A stretch of DNA of 64,000 bases from a phage, in sequence record PZ445527.1, one strand, 5' to 3'. The notes beneath the pieces were generated by a model. That model had not been told where the DNA came from and made no database searches. It worked only from the letters and a program-made list of their open reading frames with translations. Shown here piece by piece: positions 25,483 through 32,962 of the stretch; the first letter of the stretch is position 1, and each line of letters begins with the position of its first letter. Made by a program: the position numbers and the translations under genes.

Positions 25483-25560
25483 TGGCAGGGGATATTGGAT
25501 TTGAACCAATGATCTCGACTTCAAAGGCCGTTGTGCTAACCGTTACACTACTCTCCAATT
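25483..25560 (-). ncRNA. tRNA-like 3' fragment (canonical T-arm + acceptor 3' strand + CCA) without a pairing 5' acceptor strand
   Basis: ATTGG-TTCAAAT-CCAAT T-arm followed by atcccct-g-CCA; no complementary 5' strand within 100 nt. Confidence 0.3.
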
Positions 25561-25648
25561 GTTTGGCTGGAGTGCCTGATTCAATCCCAGGCACCTTCGG
25601 AGTCAGAGGCCGACGACTTGACAATTGATCTACACCTCAAGAATACTA

Positions 25649-25885
25649 TTAACTAGATGCTGGTTCTGCTGGCTGAGATACAGCAGGCTGTTCTAATGTA
25701 TCTGGTGCTGATACAGAGAAAAGAGCTTGTAATGCTGCAATATCACGCTCGTAAGTTTCAATACGAGTAGTAAGAGTATCTACCATCTGTTTATGATAGG
25801 CTAAGTTATTCTGAGATTCATCTCGAAGGGTTTGCAGTTCTGCAAGACGTGTTAACATAATTTCACTAATTAAAGCATTACTCAT
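25649..25885 (-). CDS. hypothetical coiled-coil protein 78 aa
   Basis: ORF track. Confidence 0.5.
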   Translation of the reverse strand: MSNALISEIMLTRLAELQTLRDESQNNLAYHKQMVDTLTTRIETYERDIAALQALFSVSAPDTLEQPAVSQPAEPASS

Positions 25886-26075
25886 TTGTTTCTCCTAAAT
25901 TTTCCGGTTCTTCTAAACGTTTGCCTTCATGATCTACTCGAATAACTCCGCATCCTTCGCAAATCACAACTGCACCATAACCTTCTTTGACTTCAGCTTC
26001 TGTAATCAAACCAGAAAGATCACCAGTATCTCTGCCCCACATATCAATGGAGCATTGTTTGCAGAAATCAGCCAT
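25878..26075 (-). CDS. small Cys-containing protein 65 aa
   Basis: ORF track; CKQC...CEGC. Confidence 0.45.
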   Translation of the reverse strand: MADFCKQCSIDMWGRDTGDLSGLITEAEVKEGYGAVVICEGCGVIRVDHEGKRLEEPENLGETNE

Positions 26076-26100
26076 ATTTTATTTCCTATTTAAGTTAATT

Positions 26101-26177
26101 TGGGGTGGCTAGTGGAACTCGAATCCACATAGGCCTGATTCACAATCAGGATCATTAACCAATTATGATATAGCCAC
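26101..26177 (-). tRNA. tRNA-His (anticodon GUG)
   Basis: Perfect 7-bp acceptor, D-stem TCAT/ATGA, anticodon stem CCTGA/TCAGG with loop TTGTGAA, T-arm GTGGA-TTCGAGT-TCCAC, encoded CCA. Confidence 0.75.
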
Positions 26178-26543
26178 AATTGAAAACTCGCAGGGTTAGC
26201 GAAACCATCCTCAATTAGCATGTTCTAGAATACTAATCAAGTTATCTCCTATTGCACGCAGCTCAAGACGAGTACGAATTTTCAATTGTGGCGGCTCTCA
26301 GAAACTCTTCTATTCTAGCCTCAGAAGCTTACCCCCGAACGCATGTCGGGAAAGTCTTTCCAAGCGCATCAAATAGCACCGTTACACTTTGAGCCATTGA
26401 TGTATCAAGGAATAGAAGGACTTGAACCTTCATGAGTTAGACCATTTAACTCAACCGCTTTTTAGGGTATATTTCTAGGAGTGGATGTTCCTAGTAAACC
26501 TATTCGGCAGTCCCGTCTACCAATTCCGGCATATTCCAAGATT

Positions 26544-26638
26544 TGGAGGTAGGTAAGGGGATCGAACCATTACACCGTATCACTACGGTCAACCGATTTC
26601 AAGTCGGAGTCCATCGCCAGCCGTTGGATTGACCTACC
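26544..26638 (-). tRNA. tRNA-Ser (anticodon UGA), type II
   Basis: 7-bp perfect acceptor, anticodon loop CTTGAAA, long variable arm (ACCGTA/TACGGT), T-loop TTCGATC, CCA. Confidence 0.7.
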
Positions 26639-26650
26639 TTATAAATTGTT

Positions 26651-26735
26651 TGGTGGGTTAGGAGAGACTCGAACTCTCACGCACTTAAGCAAGGGCTTCT
26701 AAGACCCTCGTGGCTACCAATTACACCACTAACCC
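26651..26735 (-). tRNA. tRNA-Leu (anticodon UAG), type II
   Basis: 7-bp perfect acceptor, anticodon loop CTTAGAA, long variable arm, T-arm GAGAG-TTCGAGT-CTCTC, CCA. Confidence 0.7.
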
Positions 26736-26741
26736 CTAATT

Positions 26742-26816
26742 TGGTGGACAGTAGGAGAGTCGAACTCCTCACTCCTGAGTGCAAGTCAGGTATTTTCCCA
26801 GATAAACTAACCGCCC
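26742..26816 (-). tRNA. tRNA-Ala (anticodon UGC)
   Basis: Acceptor GGGCGGT with G3:U70 wobble (Ala identity element), anticodon stem CCTGA/TCAGG loop CTTGCAC, T-arm AGGAG-TTCGACT-CTCCT, CCA. Confidence 0.7.
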
Positions 26817-27055
26817 AAATTCTTTAATTTACTAAGGCTATTAGCTCGGCGTAACTACAGCACCTTCGCTTCAAGCGGAAGGAACCGCGTCATCTCGCAA
26901 ACCCAATACACTATTCAGTTGCCGCTGAATCTAGTGGACTAATCTAGAACTTCTCCCGAGTCGTAGGGATCGTGCTTTTTGGCAGCCAGTCCTAGGTCGA
27001 GCTAATACCTTAGTGAATTATGATGAGGATTTCTCCCATATCAATTTATATAAAT

Positions 27056-27084
27056 ATTATAACAAGAAATTAATCATCAAGCAA
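27056..27084 (-). promoter_or_regulatory. sigma70 promoter (TTGCTT-17-TATAAT) driving the tRNA block 26101-26816
   Basis: Minus strand consensus upstream of untranslated spacer and tRNAs. Confidence 0.65.
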
Positions 27085-27158
27085 TTGAGTTTTTCTTGAA
27101 ATTGGTAGCGGGTTCCAGTACTGCCCTGGACTTACTTAGCTTATGAGACTAAGAAGAA
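27083..27158 (-). ncRNA. tRNA-like sequence with CAU anticodon, 1:72 mismatch and non-canonical T-loop
   Basis: Acceptor 6/7 bp with CCA, anticodon loop CTCATAA; T-loop GGCAGTA lacks the T-psi-C pattern. Confidence 0.3.
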
Positions 27159-27165
27159 CTCTATG

Positions 27166-27260
27166 CCTTCCACCCGCAATTGTTTGGTTATTCTAGACAG
27201 GATTCGAACCTGTTATCACTTGTGCGGACTTACGAGAACCATTCTTTCACTCGAATCGAA
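27166..27260 (-). ncRNA. region with two T-loop-like motifs (GGTTCGAATCC and CGTTCGATTCG) that does not fold into a canonical tRNA
   Basis: Hand folding failed to find anticodon arm/acceptor pairing. Confidence 0.25.
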
Positions 27261-27431
27261 CGAGCTTCTGCCCTAGCCAAGCTGGTTTCCCCATCAACCA
27301 CGCTAGAATGTTTGATTGTTTTCAGTGCAAGAGTCCGAGTCTTGGACACGACCGTTTCGCAAGTACATAGGCAGCTTATCATGAGTCAGCACTTCCGAAT
27401 TGCTAGCCCCGTGTTCTGCACTGAAATTTTA

Positions 27432-27779
27432 TTAGTTTAACCGTAAAGTATTATCTAATTCACCATTAATTGTTCGGCATTCCTCTGGAATTGCTGGTGT
27501 GGCCTTGTATTCCCACCACTCAGCACCATCATATTCCCCACGTTCTAGCCAAGTTCCGTCGGCAAACCATACATTACCATAAAGTAATTGTCCACCGTAT
27601 CCAGAATCATACTCAAAGTCTAGGTTATCAAGAAAATCCTCAATATCTTCTTCTGTATAGCCTAAAGGTAATACCCAAACTTTTTTATCCCCATAATACC
27701 CGAATTCTATTTTAATACACTTAATTTTAGAATTGGTATTTTTTAAGGCAAGTAACAACTCTTCTTTAGCATTACGCAT
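27432..27779 (-). CDS. hypothetical protein 115 aa
   Basis: ORF track. Confidence 0.55.
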   Translation of the reverse strand: MRNAKEELLLALKNTNSKIKCIKIEFGYYGDKKVWVLPLGYTEEDIEDFLDNLDFEYDSGYGGQLLYGNVWFADGTWLERGEYDGAEWWEYKATPAIPEECRTINGELDNTLRLN

Positions 27780-27804
27780 AGTATATTCTCATACTGAATT
27801 AATT

Positions 27805-27881
27805 TGGCGCGACTGATGGGATTTGAACCCACATTCCCTCCCGTGATAGGGGAGTACCATTACCAAGCCAGCCACGGTCGC
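27805..27881 (-). tRNA. tRNA with unusual anticodon loop CTATCAC (anticodon AUC if folded conventionally)
   Basis: Acceptor 6/7 bp + CCA, T-arm GTGGG-TTCAAAT-CCCAT, anticodon stem CTCCC/GGGAG; A34 is atypical. Confidence 0.5.
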
Positions 27882-27890
27882 ATAATTTAT

Positions 27891-28076
27891 TTACTCAGCT
27901 TTGAGTTTTTCAATAGCTGCATTAAGTTCTTTAAGAAACTCTTTTCGTACATTAAGACGATTGAGACTTACTAGTATATCATGTTTAAGTTCTTCGATGT
28001 ATTTCTTCTCAACTTCAATATTGTTGATAGTGCTATCACGATGAACTTCTAGCTGCGCAATCACATTCTTGGACAT
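27891..28076 (-). CDS. hypothetical coiled-coil protein 61 aa
   Basis: ORF track. Confidence 0.4.
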   Translation of the reverse strand: MSKNVIAQLEVHRDSTINNIEVEKKYIEELKHDILVSLNRLNVRKEFLKELNAAIEKLKAE

Positions 28077-28178
28077 GCTTGTTTCCTCAGTTATTAATGA
28101 AAATGGTATCTGTGGCTGAATTAGATGTCAGCAATGATAGCTGGTTGGCTACCGGTTTACTTAACTCTACACAGAATT

Positions 28179-28260
28179 TGGCGGGCCGTGTAGGATTCGA
28201 ACCTACGTTGTCTTTCGACACGGATTAACAATCCGCCGCCAAACCGCTTGGCTAACGACC
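28179..28260 (-). tRNA. type II (long variable arm) tRNA with anticodon GUU
   Basis: 7-bp acceptor (one G-U), D-stem GCCA/TGGC, anticodon arm GCGGA-TTGTTAA-TCCGT, extra arm GTC-GAAA-GAC, T-arm GTAGG-TTCGAAT-CCTAC, CCA. Confidence 0.55.
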
Positions 28261-28416
28261 CTAAAAAATTTATATTGCTGACTAGGGTTTTCACCTAGAC
28301 GGAGTTAGCACCGTAGCGTGTAGCGGCATACCTCTCCAAACCGTGCCTCATCTTTCAATTACGGAGACAGTGTTCCTACGCGTGCCTGAATTGATTTAAC
28401 AATTCTTTCAGCAAAT

Positions 28417-28492
28417 TGGACGACCGCATGAGGATTGAACTCACATAAAAAGGATTTGCAATCCTTCGCCTAAGCCATTCAGCCAACGGTCG
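28417..28492 (-). tRNA. tRNA-Cys (anticodon GCA)
   Basis: 7-bp acceptor, anticodon stem AAGGA/TCCTT loop TTGCAAA, T-loop TTCAATC, CCA; 5' end overlaps stop of ORF 28479..28670. Confidence 0.65.
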
Positions 28493-28670
28493 ATTTATCT
28501 TGTTTTTCGAGATCTTCAAACTCTAAATCATTGAAGTTCCCTAGAGTACGGGTATAGAACCCATCCCCTGCGTCATAGCCTGATTTACCACAATCACACA
28601 TTTTAAATTCGCGCAGGTGTGTGAAAACATGTTCAGAACCACAACACTTAAATCTAACTAATCGTTTCAT
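28479..28670 (-). CDS. small zinc-finger-like protein 63 aa
   Basis: ORF track; CC...CDCGKSG. Confidence 0.4.
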   Translation of the reverse strand: MKRLVRFKCCGSEHVFTHLREFKMCDCGKSGYDAGDGFYTRTLGNFNDLEFEDLEKQDKSTVG

Positions 28671-28698
28671 TAGCTTCTCCAGTTCAATTTATGTAATT

Positions 28699-28727
28699 AT
28701 TATATAGAACTTTTGGGAACTAAGCAA
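28699..28727 (-). promoter_or_regulatory. sigma70 promoter (TTGCTT-17-TATAAT)
   Basis: Minus strand consensus. Confidence 0.65.
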
Positions 28728-29009
28728 CTACATTTTTTAAGAATTTGATGCCTTTCTTTTTCTTCTTATATTTCCACGTTAATGGATTCTGTCGATTATG
28801 AACGCTTGAGATCTTTGTCTCGTCAAAGTTCTTCAATATCATGTAATCACAAGATAATTGTTCTAGTGGAATGTGATCACCGTCAAAAGCGTATACATAA
28901 GGCTGTTGACTAGCACGATAATGATAGACTTTGTTAATTCTACGTTTCAGCGACTTATCCGCGCAGTAAATAAAGAAGTTTTAAGGGTGCATCAGCATCT
29001 CCTTCAATT

Positions 29010-29093
29010 TGGTGCATCGTGCTGGATTTGAACCACCAACCCCGAAGGGCACGGATTTACAGACCGCTGCAATAGCCATTCTGCCAACGATGC
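29010..29093 (-). tRNA. tRNA-Tyr (anticodon GUA), type II
   Basis: Perfect 7-bp acceptor, anticodon loop CTGTAAA, long variable arm (CCC-TTCG-GGG), T-loop TTCAAAT, CCA. Confidence 0.7.
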
Positions 29094-29221
29094 ACATTTA
29101 AAAGTATTCAAATACTAGTTTAAACACTTTTAAATATGTTTCCAAATTAGATAACTATTATACCAAGTTTTAAGGCACTGAGCAAGTCAGATTTTGAAGA
29201 ACTTGCTCAGTGCTGTATTAG

Positions 29222-29506
29222 TTAGTCGAACTTAGGAGTGACAGATAAGGAGAACGGAAGTTCAAAAACTTCTTCACCCTCATTACTAACGGTAACTACA
29301 CGACCTTTAAGTTCAGACATTAAAATATCAATATCAGCTTTTGCATCTGGAGCCATGCCAGCTTCAATACATTTAGCTTTAACTTCCGGTAAAAGCTCTA
29401 CGTTATAGAGATAGAGCCACTCAATCTCACCTTCCCAGTCTTCCCAGTCTTCCCAGGATTTGCAGATTGCACTTTCAATACCAGTTGCTACAACACGATT
29501 TTGCAT
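29222..29506 (-). CDS. hypothetical acidic protein 94 aa
   Basis: ORF track. Confidence 0.5.
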   Translation of the reverse strand: MQNRVVATGIESAICKSWEDWEDWEGEIEWLYLYNVELLPEVKAKCIEAGMAPDAKADIDILMSELKGRVVTVSNEGEEVFELPFSLSVTPKFD

Positions 29507-29596
29507 TCGTTAACTCCTTCATCAATTTATATAACTATTATACCAGAAATTTAAAGCAAAAGGCAAGTACATTTTTAAAAATTCTGTTTGGAGGAG

Positions 29597-29803
29597 CTAA
29601 ACTCCAGATTCTTCTGCCAAGTCTAGACTAATAAGAGTTATAGCCATAATTGCTGCACCGTGTTCTTTTTCTCCGGTGTTTTTAGCAGAGTCTATAATAT
29701 CCTTAATCTGTTCGTAATAACTTTTTACTTCTTGTTCAATGCCTGCCTCGGCTATCATGCCTTTAGTCATGAGTCGTTGCATGGTAATTTCAGTATTAGC
29801 CAT
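29597..29803 (-). CDS. hypothetical protein 68 aa
   Basis: ORF track; GGAG SD. Confidence 0.5.
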   Translation of the reverse strand: MANTEITMQRLMTKGMIAEAGIEQEVKSYYEQIKDIIDSAKNTGEKEHGAAIMAITLISLDLAEESGV

Positions 29804-29963
29804 GTTGTTTCTCCAGTTTCATTTTTAATAGTTTACAAATGAAATCAACGTCTTCATCCGTGCCTAGATCTCTATCTTCAAGGGTTGCCTTGAAATTTTT
29901 TGTTAGTTCCATAAGAATAACTTCCCTGGAACGACGTGTTGGCGGGGGTGGATGTCTATACAT
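29796..29963 (-). CDS. small proline-rich protein (55 aa)
   Basis: ATG with AAGGA SD, MYRHPPPPTRR...; below ORF track cut-off; overlaps next start by 8 nt. Confidence 0.4.
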   Translation of the reverse strand: MYRHPPPPTRRSREVILMELTKNFKATLEDRDLGTDEDVDFICKLLKMKLEKQHG

Positions 29964-29978
29964 CTTATTTCCTTAATT

Positions 29979-30053
29979 TGGTGGGTCGGAGGAGAATCTA
30001 ACTCCTACTCGTTAGCTTATGAGGCCACCGCTTTAACTTTAAGCTACCGACCC
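29979..30053 (-). tRNA. tRNA with CAU anticodon (Met or Ile-lysidine type) and atypical T-loop TTAGATT
   Basis: Perfect 7-bp acceptor GGGTCGG/CCGACCC, CCA, anticodon loop CTCATAA, T-stem AGGAG/CTCCT. Confidence 0.55.
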
Positions 30054-30059
30054 TATGTT

Positions 30060-30148
30060 TGGCGGAAGAAGTGGGAATCGAACCCACAAGGCTATATTTC
30101 AAACCGACAGATTAGCAATCTGCTGCAATACCGTTATGCTATTCTTCC
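30060..30148 (-). tRNA. tRNA-Ser (anticodon GCU), type II
   Basis: Perfect acceptor GGAAGAA/TTCTTCC, anticodon arm GCAGA-TTGCTAA-TCTGT, long variable arm, T-arm GTGGG-TTCGATT-CCCAC, CCA. Confidence 0.7.
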
Positions 30149-30162
30149 GAATTTATAAATAT

Positions 30163-30191
30163 ATTATATTAGAAATTTAGCTTCATAGCAA
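30163..30191 (-). promoter_or_regulatory. sigma70 promoter (TTGCTA-17-TATAAT) overlapping the 3' end of the upstream gene
   Basis: Minus strand consensus; would drive tRNAs 30148-29979. Confidence 0.6.
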
Positions 30192-30687
30192 GAAAATTTT
30201 TCAAGTTTTCGGTAGACATCTCATCCACATCTACAGGAGAAACAAATCCATTTAATTGTCTAGCAAATTTTTTACCAGCAGGATCATTATCCCCAACAGC
30301 TACCAATTTAAAAGGTAGTAATTTCAATTGCTTTAATAGCGCTTTTCCTGGAGAAGAACCCAACATTGCCAAGGCTGGATAACCAGCGTTATGTAACGCA
30401 ACTGCCTTAAATACAGATTCAGCAATCAATACCACTTTTTCATCTCCATTGAGAGTTTCTAGTCCCCATACACACTGTGTAGTAGAATAAGTAAAATATC
30501 TAGCTTCAAAGGGGCACTTACCATGACCTTTTGGAGCAGAAGGATTATAAGTCTGATAGCCTCTCAACATCCCAGAGAAGTCATACAATGGGACTGTTAG
30601 CCATCCTTCCGGGCTTAACCAGCAATGATATTTATCTGTATCAAACCCTCTAGATAAGAGATGTTCTGTTAGTTCATCAACAGTCAT
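30169..30687 (-). CDS. Toprim-domain protein 172 aa
   Basis: Conserved Glu (LIAESVF) and DxD (VGDNDPAGKK) spaced as in Toprim folds. Confidence 0.5.
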   Translation of the reverse strand: MTVDELTEHLLSRGFDTDKYHCWLSPEGWLTVPLYDFSGMLRGYQTYNPSAPKGHGKCPFEARYFTYSTTQCVWGLETLNGDEKVVLIAESVFKAVALHNAGYPALAMLGSSPGKALLKQLKLLPFKLVAVGDNDPAGKKFARQLNGFVSPVDVDEMSTENLKNFLAMKLNF

Positions 30688-30724
30688 ATTTGATCCCCTA
30701 GTTAGTTGTATAAATACATTATAC

Positions 30725-30758
30725 AGAAAAGCCCTGCGCTCTCCAGTGAACGCAGGGC
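30725..30758 (-). terminator. rho-independent terminator (gccctgcg...cgcagggc + U-tract)
   Basis: 8-bp GC stem followed by UUUU on minus strand, downstream of 30784..31731. Confidence 0.65.
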
Positions 30759-30783
30759 TTACTTCGAATATTACGTGTGGGTA

Positions 30784-31731
30784 TTACTTGTTACGCATAT
30801 CCATAATCATTTGGCCATCGTAACCAGTGCCAACCACAGTCTGCGGTACACCACCTTGATACTTCTGAGCACGAATCATTTCAACTTCTAGTTGCTTCCA
30901 GCGAATCATCTCAGGAGTAATGGTACGTTGCAGAGCGGCGTTAGCTTCAGCTTCTTTCTTAGCTGCGTACAGTTTAGCATCTGCATCACGTTCGTTTGCA
31001 ATAGCTTGGTTGTTACGAGCTTCACGATCTGCTTCTGCTTGTTTAACCTTCTGCTGTGCTTCTTGTTCAACACGAGCCAACTCAGCTTTCGCAGCATTAA
31101 CTTGTTCTTCACGAACTTTGGTATTCTGTACCTGTTCCATGATTACAGGCGGCAAAGTAATATCCTGAAGGAACACTTGCTTAACTGTGTAACCATAAGG
31201 GCGTGCATACTCTTCAACTTCCTGTTGAATTGCAGTTTGCAATTGAGCCTGAATTTTAGCATCAAACAAATCTTGTGCTTTAGGTACAGACTTACCAAAC
31301 TCACGAATAGTAGACAGTAATTTTTCAGTTACATACTTGTCTAGTGCCTGATCCTGAGTACCTGCATTAATACGGTTAATCGGTGCCTTAGAACCATCAA
31401 ACTGCAACATAACAGTCAGGTCAACAGTGGATTTAAACTTATCCTGACTAGGAACCTGAAGTTTATCTAATTTTACAGCAATATCTTTTGTACTGAAAGT
31501 ATCGAAAGATGCAAACGGGTTTACAATATGGAAACCAGGTAATACTGGATTAGGGTCTACTTTACCAAGAAATGTTTGGGTTTTAACCGTACCATCAGAA
31601 ACAATAGTATATGAATTAAAAGCTAGGATTAAACCTGCTAAACCAACTACAGCACCAATACCCCAACGTTTAATAGTACGGATTACTTTCTGCTCAGAAG
31701 TCAGTTCTTTCATATTTTTAGTAGCAAACAT
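30784..31731 (-). CDS. SPFH/band-7 (prohibitin/HflK-like) membrane protein 315 aa
   Basis: N-terminal TM helix, SPFH-like core, long Ala/Glu/Gln-rich coiled-coil C-terminus. Confidence 0.6.
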   Translation of the reverse strand: MFATKNMKELTSEQKVIRTIKRWGIGAVVGLAGLILAFNSYTIVSDGTVKTQTFLGKVDPNPVLPGFHIVNPFASFDTFSTKDIAVKLDKLQVPSQDKFKSTVDLTVMLQFDGSKAPINRINAGTQDQALDKYVTEKLLSTIREFGKSVPKAQDLFDAKIQAQLQTAIQQEVEEYARPYGYTVKQVFLQDITLPPVIMEQVQNTKVREEQVNAAKAELARVEQEAQQKVKQAEADREARNNQAIANERDADAKLYAAKKEAEANAALQRTITPEMIRWKQLEVEMIRAQKYQGGVPQTVVGTGYDGQMIMDMRNK

Positions 31732-31765
31732 ATATTTCCTTTGTTTTAGTTACAGTTAATAAAAT

Positions 31766-31839
31766 TGGCCGAGGTGACAGGATTCGAACCTGCATAAAGG
31801 AATTTAGAAGACTCCTGCCTCTCCCTTAGACTACACCCC
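31766..31839 (-). tRNA. tRNA-Arg (anticodon UCU)
   Basis: Acceptor 7 bp (one G-U), anticodon loop CTTCTAA, T-loop TTCGAAT, CCA. Confidence 0.6.
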
Positions 31840-32343
31840 GTTTAAGTATTTTTAAGAACTCTCGTAAAAACTCTTAAAAATACAGACGATACCGGGAGAG
31901 TCATAAGTCTCACTCATTAAGTATTTCAAGACAAAATACAGTAACGTCTATTATTTTCCAGTTTAAGTCAGGGTGACTTAGTGGTTATGTCCTGCGGTAT
32001 ATTGAGGACTCGGTTAGGCTTGGGGTCATGACTTCCCGCCTTTTGCTGCTACTCAACAGGAGTTATCGCGAATTACCTGTGCTATTGTGCACCATTAGTG
32101 ACATCTCTCATGCCAGCATTTCCCACTTTGTGGATAGCTTGAAAAACTACTCCGATACGGAGAAAGAACTTCACTATCCTAGAATACCTTCTAAAGTTCT
32201 TCTTTAGCCTGGACATAGTTAAATCGTAATAAAACTATTCAGCAGACCGGTTGGTTAGTCTGGAACCAACTACCGCGTGGTTTAGGCAGTGCGCAACTAA
32301 CCTCGGAAGCTTTTACGTTAAAAGCACCAGTTATCCAGTTCTT

Positions 32344-32416
32344 ACCGACCGTAGGATTCGAACCTACATCTTCCACCAGTTACGGCTTGATAATACCAAT
32401 TATACTAGGACGGCAG
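32344..32416 (-). ncRNA. tRNA-like sequence (canonical T-arm GTAGG-TTCGAAT-CCTAC, no CCA, anticodon arm not resolved)
   Basis: Hand fold incomplete. Confidence 0.35.
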
Positions 32417-32527: not shown

Positions 32528-32962
32528 TTAGAAAAACTCGCTAGCAATCAAGGCGGCTGTTTTACCATCATAACGCCCTGTAAACTCTGCCTTAATAGTT
32601 TTCATTAAGAGAGCTTTGGTAATACCTGGGTTTAGCTTAACCAATTCTGCAAAGTATTTACGAATTTCAGTTTCAGTTAACTGTTGCAGTGCATAATCAT
32701 GCTCTAAACGCGCTAAAAGATCTAAGTATTCAGCATCAGGGGTATAGTCAACATTCGATTTTTCAGCAGCAATCCGTGTATTCTCAATTGCTTTGAATTG
32801 TGATTTCAACCAGTTAGTAAACTCCAGCTCAGTTACGCAATCTTTATCAATACGTTGCAGGTCTCCTAGAACCGTACTTAGATGCTTAACTGATACAGCG
32901 TCACCACTTTTGCGAGCAGCTTCAATCAACTCTCGCAGTACATAAAGCATATTCATGCCCAT
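32528..32962 (-). CDS. hypothetical protein 144 aa
   Basis: ORF track. Confidence 0.55.
   Translation of the reverse strand: MGMNMLYVLRELIEAARKSGDAVSVKHLSTVLGDLQRIDKDCVTELEFTNWLKSQFKAIENTRIAAEKSNVDYTPDAEYLDLLARLEHDYALQQLTETEIRKYFAELVKLNPGITKALLMKTIKAEFTGRYDGKTAALIASEFF

Follow-up and report, generated by a model that had tools for sequence, protein, structure and literature searches.

The 64-kb stretch of phage DNA analyzed here, which we call the window, carries on its minus strand, at 27805-27881, a tRNA gene that appears to have an adenosine at the wobble position of its anticodon. An earlier note on this DNA read the anticodon as AUC from a fold drawn by hand and left two ways out: either the fold was wrong, or the phage tRNA has non-standard decoding. 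The locus raises two questions, namely whether A34 is really there and, if so, whether it changes what the tRNA does.

The gene, its fold and its orthologues

ARAGORN called a tRNA-Asp with anticodon atc at 27805-27881 on the minus strand. The 77-nt gene, which encodes its own CCA, reads GCGACCGUGGCUGGCUUGGUAAUGGUACUCCCCUAUCACGGGAGGGAAUGUGGGUUCAAAUCCCAUCAGUCGCGCCA on that strand. The Rfam model RF00005 matched 27808-27881 of the same strand with a score of 44.5 bits, where the gathering score is 29 (posterior 1.00; E=3e-6 over the full 64 kb), and the match covered model positions 1-71 of 71. In the Rfam alignment the acceptor stem is GCGACCG/CAGUCGC, with a single mismatch (C6.A67), and the D stem is GCUG/UGGU. 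The anticodon stem CUCCC/GGGAG closes the loop C-U-A-U-C-A-C, the T arm is GUGGG-UUCAAAU-CCCAU, the discriminator is G and the CCA is encoded. The molecule forms a complete cloverleaf, with helices of 7, 4, 5 and 5 bp, U33, a T loop of the type UUCNANU and CCA, and 20 of its 21 pairs are standard.

Both the Rfam alignment and alignments of orthologues place the anticodon stem-loop CUCCC-CUAUCAC-GGGAG at 27838-27854 (minus strand). The anticodon AUC occupies 27845-27847 on the same strand, by ARAGORN and by the orthologue alignments. A34 itself is at 27847, where the plus strand has T and the relatives have C, which corresponds to G34. The plus strand could form a DNA hairpin here, with this C in its loop. 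The hand fold was correct, as ARAGORN and Rfam returned the same stem and the same loop, and the reading of the anticodon as AUC with A34 at 27847 was borne out by both programs; automated folding gave no standard anticodon. We rejected an alternative fold or register with a standard anticodon because ARAGORN, Rfam and inspection agree and because a 5-bp anticodon stem forms in no other register. The minimum-free-energy (MFE) structure that ViennaRNA predicts for the window sequence is not a cloverleaf, and the same holds for the consensus sequence of the family. Two further Rfam matches at the locus, to mascRNA (E=0.022) and, on the plus strand, to Plastid-ycf2 (E=0.38), were below threshold and were set aside as tRNA-shape or chance matches. 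ARAGORN found no second, normal tRNA-Asp within the 64-kb window.

The window belongs to a T5-like phage (Tequintavirus), and the stretch of ~8 kb around its tRNA cluster has 93-96% identity to Tequintavirus genomes of Salmonella and E. coli. The tRNA differs from the tRNA-Asp of many Tequintavirus records at 3 of 77 positions (96.1% identity). Its position is also the one it has in T5, BF23 and Salmonella phage 5, between two small ORFs that relatives' annotations identify. Upstream is a 61-aa ORF (27891-28076, minus strand; DUF7337), a homologue of the T5-group 'ORF trn 2.9', and downstream is a 115-aa ORF (27432-27779, minus strand), a homologue of T5p065 / 'ORF trn 2.10'. Because there are only three mismatches and the flanking ORFs are the same, we identify the gene, on sequence and synteny, as the orthologue of T5 tRNA-Asp (tRNAD). 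The tRNA-Asp(GUC) genes of T5, BF23 and other Tequintavirus/Demerecviridae share with it not only the slot and 74 of 77 bases but also an unusual body (a G.U-rich D stem and C2-G71), the T loop, the discriminator G and the encoded CCA. They differ in having G34, G8 and G67, whereas the window has A34, U8 and A67, the last of which leaves the C6.A67 mismatch.

The gene is part of a phage tRNA cluster (25483-32414, minus strand) in which we counted 12 ARAGORN tRNAs and one tRNA-like match found by Rfam only. These 12-13 genes compare with ~24 in T5 and 24-28 in some relatives, and the reduced set closely resembles that of Salmonella phage Kenya-K38. Two ARAGORN calls in the cluster, tRNA-His (26101-26177) and tRNA-Ser(tga) (26544-26638), fall below the Rfam gathering score. 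At 32343-32414 (minus strand) Rfam recognized a tRNA (35.5 bits) for which there is no ARAGORN call in the window. ARAGORN gives its counterpart in T5, BF23 and LmqsSP1 as 'tRNA-Ser(act)', another A34-type anticodon; record AY587007 lists the counterpart as a pseudo-tRNA, and in AJ604531 it falls within 'RNAX'. Near this end of the cluster, the ORF at 32528-32962 (minus strand) carries in relatives the annotation 'GatB domain containing protein / tRNA amidotransferase'. A Pfam search of this ORF returned no family at E<=0.01, and the annotation may be weakly founded; as there was no Pfam match, we drew no link from the ORF to Asp/Asn-tRNA metabolism.

Rarity and origin of A34

The aligned orthologues of the window tRNA-Asp have the anticodon GTC, with phage 5 as the exception. 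ARAGORN gave GUC for 40 of the 42 tRNA-Asp calls in the related loci, and the remaining two calls both come from the one phage 5 record, which is present in duplicate. Among 620 tRNAs called by ARAGORN in 44 related loci, the only other cases of A34 outside tRNA-Arg were the phage 5 tRNA-Asp and a pseudo-tRNA, which agrees with the earlier statement that A34 is rare outside tRNA-Arg(ACG).

Larger collections gave the same picture. A 30-nt probe with A34, searched against 50,697 phage records, had a 100% match in one record only (AJ604531.1), whereas the same probe with G34 matched 613 phage records at 99% or more. No phage record matched 41 nt of the window's anticodon region at 100%. Using a pattern with N at position 34, we found G34, G8 and G67 in all 24 IMG/VR copies and in all 12 metagenome copies. 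The A34 pattern had no copy in IMG/VR and none in 185,579 reference genomes, and the combination U8/A34/A67 was found in no other record of the phage, IMG/VR, metagenome and reference-genome sets searched. Across all orthologues examined there is no variation in the anticodon stem, with its five pairs, or in the loop outside position 34.

Because the orthologues read GUC almost without exception, we regard A34 as a lineage-private G-to-A transition and not as a designed feature. The suggestion of non-standard decoding went too far: judged by its orthologues, the window tRNA-Asp is not a conserved non-standard decoder. We consider it likely that the window has a point-mutant, lineage-private allele of a tRNA-Asp gene which the phage can do without; the tRNA is probably poorly aminoacylated and drifting, and at most an Asp decoder of GAU only. 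The case warns annotators that an unusual anticodon within a phage tRNA cluster can come from a private point mutation of a dispensable gene, and comparison with orthologues reveals such mutations at once.

The one other record of this orthologue with AUC, AJ604531.1, is the tRNA region of Salmonella phage 5, and its depositors annotated the gene with "codon recognized: GAU". The AUC allele had already been deposited and annotated for phage 5, and the window provides a second, more heavily mutated and apparently independent case. The two copies lie on different haplotypes: phage 5 has A34 on a G8/A45/G67 background with an intact body, and the window has U8/G45/A67. When 24 sequences were aligned over 1017 nt, phage 5 was only the twelfth-closest to the window, and a single site, 27847 itself, was exclusive to the two. 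Because the haplotypes differ and no further site in the 1017 nt is shared exclusively, A34 probably arose independently in the two phages, with recurrent mutation as the most parsimonious account. Descent from a common A34 ancestor was rejected on the same ground, and gene conversion from a phage 5-type copy would need a tract shorter than ~37 nt.

An allele that is this rare could also be an artefact. The three changes, or A34 alone, might be a sequencing or assembly error or a mutation acquired in laboratory passage, in which case the natural phage would have a GUC tRNA-Asp. Consistent with this, the three-base combination is unique to the window, all three changes are G-to-A or G-to-T on the tRNA strand and sit inside a local run of such changes, and a laboratory strain, T5 st0, has a comparable anticodon mutation in its tRNA-Thr. 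We nevertheless find an artefact quite improbable, in view of the private substitutions of the wider region and of phage 5, which was sequenced independently by the Sanger method and carries the same, explicitly annotated A34.

We counted private substitutions over ~8.3 kb (8260 nt) of the tRNA region that was covered by at least six relatives. The window has 46 (0.56%), with a natural, transition-dominated and roughly strand-balanced spectrum. Sixteen of them fall in ORFs, where nine are synonymous and seven, mostly conservative, are non-synonymous, and the ORF lengths equal those of T5. The balanced, transition-dominated spectrum, the synonymous excess and the intact ORF lengths mark this, as far as substitution patterns can tell, as real evolution under purifying selection and not random error. 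For the same reasons (a balanced spectrum over 8.3 kb and coding changes enriched for synonymous ones) a strand-biased damage artefact was rejected as a general explanation.

The local pattern is more uneven. Within the 1-kb neighbourhood of the gene there are six strictly private changes. Read on the tRNA strand, each of them is a G>A or a G>T, and so is the A34 change that phage 5 also has. The run of private substitutions extends over 27018-28123, where 9 of 10 (27847 and 27874 counted in) replace a plus-strand C by T or A and the exception is a G>T at 27074; the run may be due to chance, to strand-specific damage or to a patch acquired from a lineage that has not been sampled. Elsewhere in the region, two tight intergenic clusters, one of 7 private sites in 18 nt (30700-30717) and one of 5 private sites in 29 nt (25617-25645), have the look of short replaced segments, not of point mutations that arose one by one.

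Companion substitutions and dispensability of the gene

Apart from A34, the alignments identify two further private substitutions in the tRNA. One is G67A (27814, minus strand), which turns the pair C6-G67 into a C.A mismatch. The other is G8U (27874, minus strand). Position 8 of tRNAs is almost universally U. Every other compared copy of the T5-family tRNA-Asp has G8, together with a D stem containing three G.U pairs, and the private change in the window is a change to the canonical U8.

The effect of G67A on the structure is clear from the family alignment. Among its 10 distinct variants, 99.5% of 210 stem cells form standard pairs, and the sole unpaired cell is C6.A67 of the window. Compensatory double changes occur at six pairs, all of them contributed by one divergent metagenomic lineage. 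The cloverleaf energy is -26.6 kcal/mol for the consensus and -19.6 kcal/mol for the window, and nearly all of the 7 kcal/mol lost is due to G67A. With all three changes together, a register-shifted helix becomes the MFE structure. The Rfam score drops slightly, by 2.2 bits, from 46.7 to 44.5 bits.

The number of private changes in the gene is also higher than expected. Three were observed in 77 nt, against ~0.43 expected (Poisson P ~0.01), and the same excess has P ~0.04 under the intergenic rate of ~1%. The other 12 tRNAs of the window, ~1 kb in total, carry ~5 private changes together, mostly in loops.

Damage to tRNA genes is seen in other phages of this group. For instance, Salmonella phage Kenya-K38, a close relative whose reduced tRNA set almost equals that of the window, has lost tRNA-Asp outright. 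Its orthologue (locus L005, 4024-4140) is chimeric, and no tRNA was called there: the anticodon arm (GTC), the T arm and the 3' acceptor strand are intact, and the 5' acceptor strand and D arm have been replaced by a different tRNA-like D-arm sequence. The Kenya-K38 copy is clearly broken, whereas the window copy is still a good tRNA by score. In T5 st0 (AY692264, locus L006, 1671-1745) the annotated tRNA-Thr has TAT and is called Ile(tat) by ARAGORN; it differs from the tRNA-Thr(TGT) of T5 ATCC 11303-B5 by one base, G35A (UGU to UAU). A metagenome contig (locus L034, 3548-3621) has an orthologue of the T5-family tRNA-Val(tac) with three substitutions and a malformed anticodon loop, which ARAGORN reports as 'tRNA-??? 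(tt)'. These three cases show that damaged or anticodon-mutated tRNA genes are carried by viable T5-like phages. It is classical knowledge that the T5 tRNA region can be deleted, and the st0 deletion is annotated in a T5-family record.

Because the gene is dispensable and the host tRNA-Asp(QUC) covers both Asp codons, tRNA-Asp in the lineage of the window may be drifting under relaxed constraint. Some observations do not fit simple decay. G8U goes towards the canonical U8, the opposite of what decay predicts. The tRNA is well above the Rfam threshold and has kept its CCA, its T loop and all stems other than the acceptor stem. Three changes somewhat exceed even the intergenic rate, as noted above. 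In addition, the same G34A occurs on a different haplotype in phage 5, and a wobble-base change that recurs in this way could reflect selection rather than drift. An anticodon matched to GAU could also be useful.

Charging, decoding and possible selection

Five strong determinants, G73, G34, U35, C36 and C38, define aspartate identity, and the effect of those in the anticodon is strongest in Bacteria (PMC9976931). The window tRNA-Asp keeps four of the five (G73, U35, C36 and C38) and has lost G34. It also has G10, which belongs to the Asp identity set of E. coli. The minor determinant G2-C71 is absent, and this is not specific to the window: the window has C2-G71, as do 9 of the 10 distinct aligned variants, and the divergent metagenomic variant does have G2-C71. 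From these determinants, the window tRNA-Asp is probably poorly charged by AspRS, and it may be poorly functional.

What a charged fraction would read depends on whether A34 is modified. Tgt inserts queuosine in place of G34, so that A34 cannot be modified in this way. A34 is, however, the position at which TadA acts, and the resulting I34 reads U, C and A. On this basis the tRNA could have an altered meaning, either because A34 is converted to inosine, which would place Asp at GAA too, or because another synthetase charges the tRNA; either would be true recoding. We judge recoding to be extremely improbable. TadA is highly specific for the anticodon loop of tRNA-Arg2, and inosine at any level was detected in only 3 of 15 A34 tRNAs tested in E. 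coli (PMC11066159). The window loop CUAUCAC lacks the tRNA-Arg2-type context (A34-C35-G36) of TadA substrates. In E. coli, an orthogonal tRNA with AUC decoded GAU (3.5% reassignment), and decoding of GAC, GAA and GAG was not above the detection limit (PMC11066159). As for another synthetase, the body of the window tRNA keeps the Asp features G73, U35, C36, C38 and G10, and no other identity set appears to fit.

The engineered M. jannaschii tRNA used in that work (PMC11066159) is like the window tRNA in having AUC and U33 in an enterobacterial cell. It differs in that an orthogonal synthetase charges it without regard to the anticodon, whereas the phage tRNA-Asp depends on the host AspRS, which reads G34.

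The ORFs of the window contain 563 GAU and 190 GAC codons, that is, GAU makes up 75% of the Asp codons. If charged, the window tRNA-Asp would at most insert Asp at GAU only, which would narrow decoding without any recoding. A tRNA-Asp restricted to GAU would not be useless, given this codon usage.

The reading we prefer, a mutant allele drifting in a dispensable gene, would then work as follows. The tRNA would still be transcribed and processed like its neighbours. Its A34 would stay A, being neither convertible to queuosine nor a substrate of TadA. Loss of the G34 identity element, together with the weakened acceptor stem, would make it a poor substrate for AspRS, and any charged fraction would insert Asp at GAU only, leaving the code unchanged. 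The phage would tolerate the mutant, since single T5-type tRNA genes are dispensable and the host tRNA-Asp(QUC) reads both Asp codons.

The apparently independent origin of G34A in the window and in Salmonella phage 5 is the one point of possible specialist interest, and it speaks for an adaptive reading. A34 might give an Asp-charged, Watson-Crick decoder of the dominant GAU codon, and it might also evade a factor that depends on G34 or Q34, such as a colicin-E5-type nuclease or the Tgt-dependent queuosine modification. The predominance of GAU fits this reading, and experiments in E. coli show GAU decoding by an AUC anticodon (PMC11066159). YGU is an absolute requirement of colicin E5, for which tRNA-Asp ranks second among substrates (PMC1635277); given this requirement, UAU would resist the nuclease. 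Mutations in the anticodon loop have been proposed as a means by which phage tRNAs evade tRNases (PMC10264068), and G34A in the window removes the YGU motif.

We still think adaptation unlikely. The window differs from the phage tRNAs proposed to evade nucleases in that the other three E5 targets of the same phage, the tRNAs for Tyr (gta), His (gtg) and Asn (gtt), keep G34, so that escape from an E5-type nuclease through tRNA-Asp would be pointless. There is one other A34 record against hundreds with G34, and no clade has retained the allele. G34 is a strong determinant for AspRS (PMC9976931), and G34A is accompanied by the stem-breaking G67A. Our literature search found no Asp-specific anticodon nuclease in phage defence, nothing on AJ604531 and nothing on 'tRNA-Asp' with 'anticodon AUC', and the PARIS AriB paper does not mention tRNA-Asp.

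A more specific form of the adaptive reading holds that G34A in the T5-family tRNA-Asp is a recurrent, selected escape allele. Its A34 would be unmodified, it would be charged well enough to serve GAU, and it would be invisible to a host factor that depends on G34/Q34-U35, whether a colicin-E5-like or a hypothetical Asp-directed anticodon nuclease or a Tgt-dependent step. We give this version little credence. If it were true, it would mean a natural A34 tRNA working in a bacterial split codon box. More generally, an allele that was functional and selected would provide a rare natural case of A34 in a tRNA for a two-codon box, and it would bear on the debate over whether phages carry tRNAs for codon supply or for evasion of host defences that target tRNAs. 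Since two separate T5-like phages carry an identical substitution at the wobble base, they offer a cheap, well-defined pair of alleles for such a test.

Another tRNA of possible interest for decoding occurs in divergent T5-like metagenome clusters (L036, 326-400; L037, L043 and L044). One of their tRNAs has the anticodon CTA; ARAGORN lists it as 'tRNA-Pyl (cta)', and it is possibly an amber-suppressor tRNA. The same clusters also hold a tRNA-Asp whose acceptor stem has been fully rewritten by compensatory changes.
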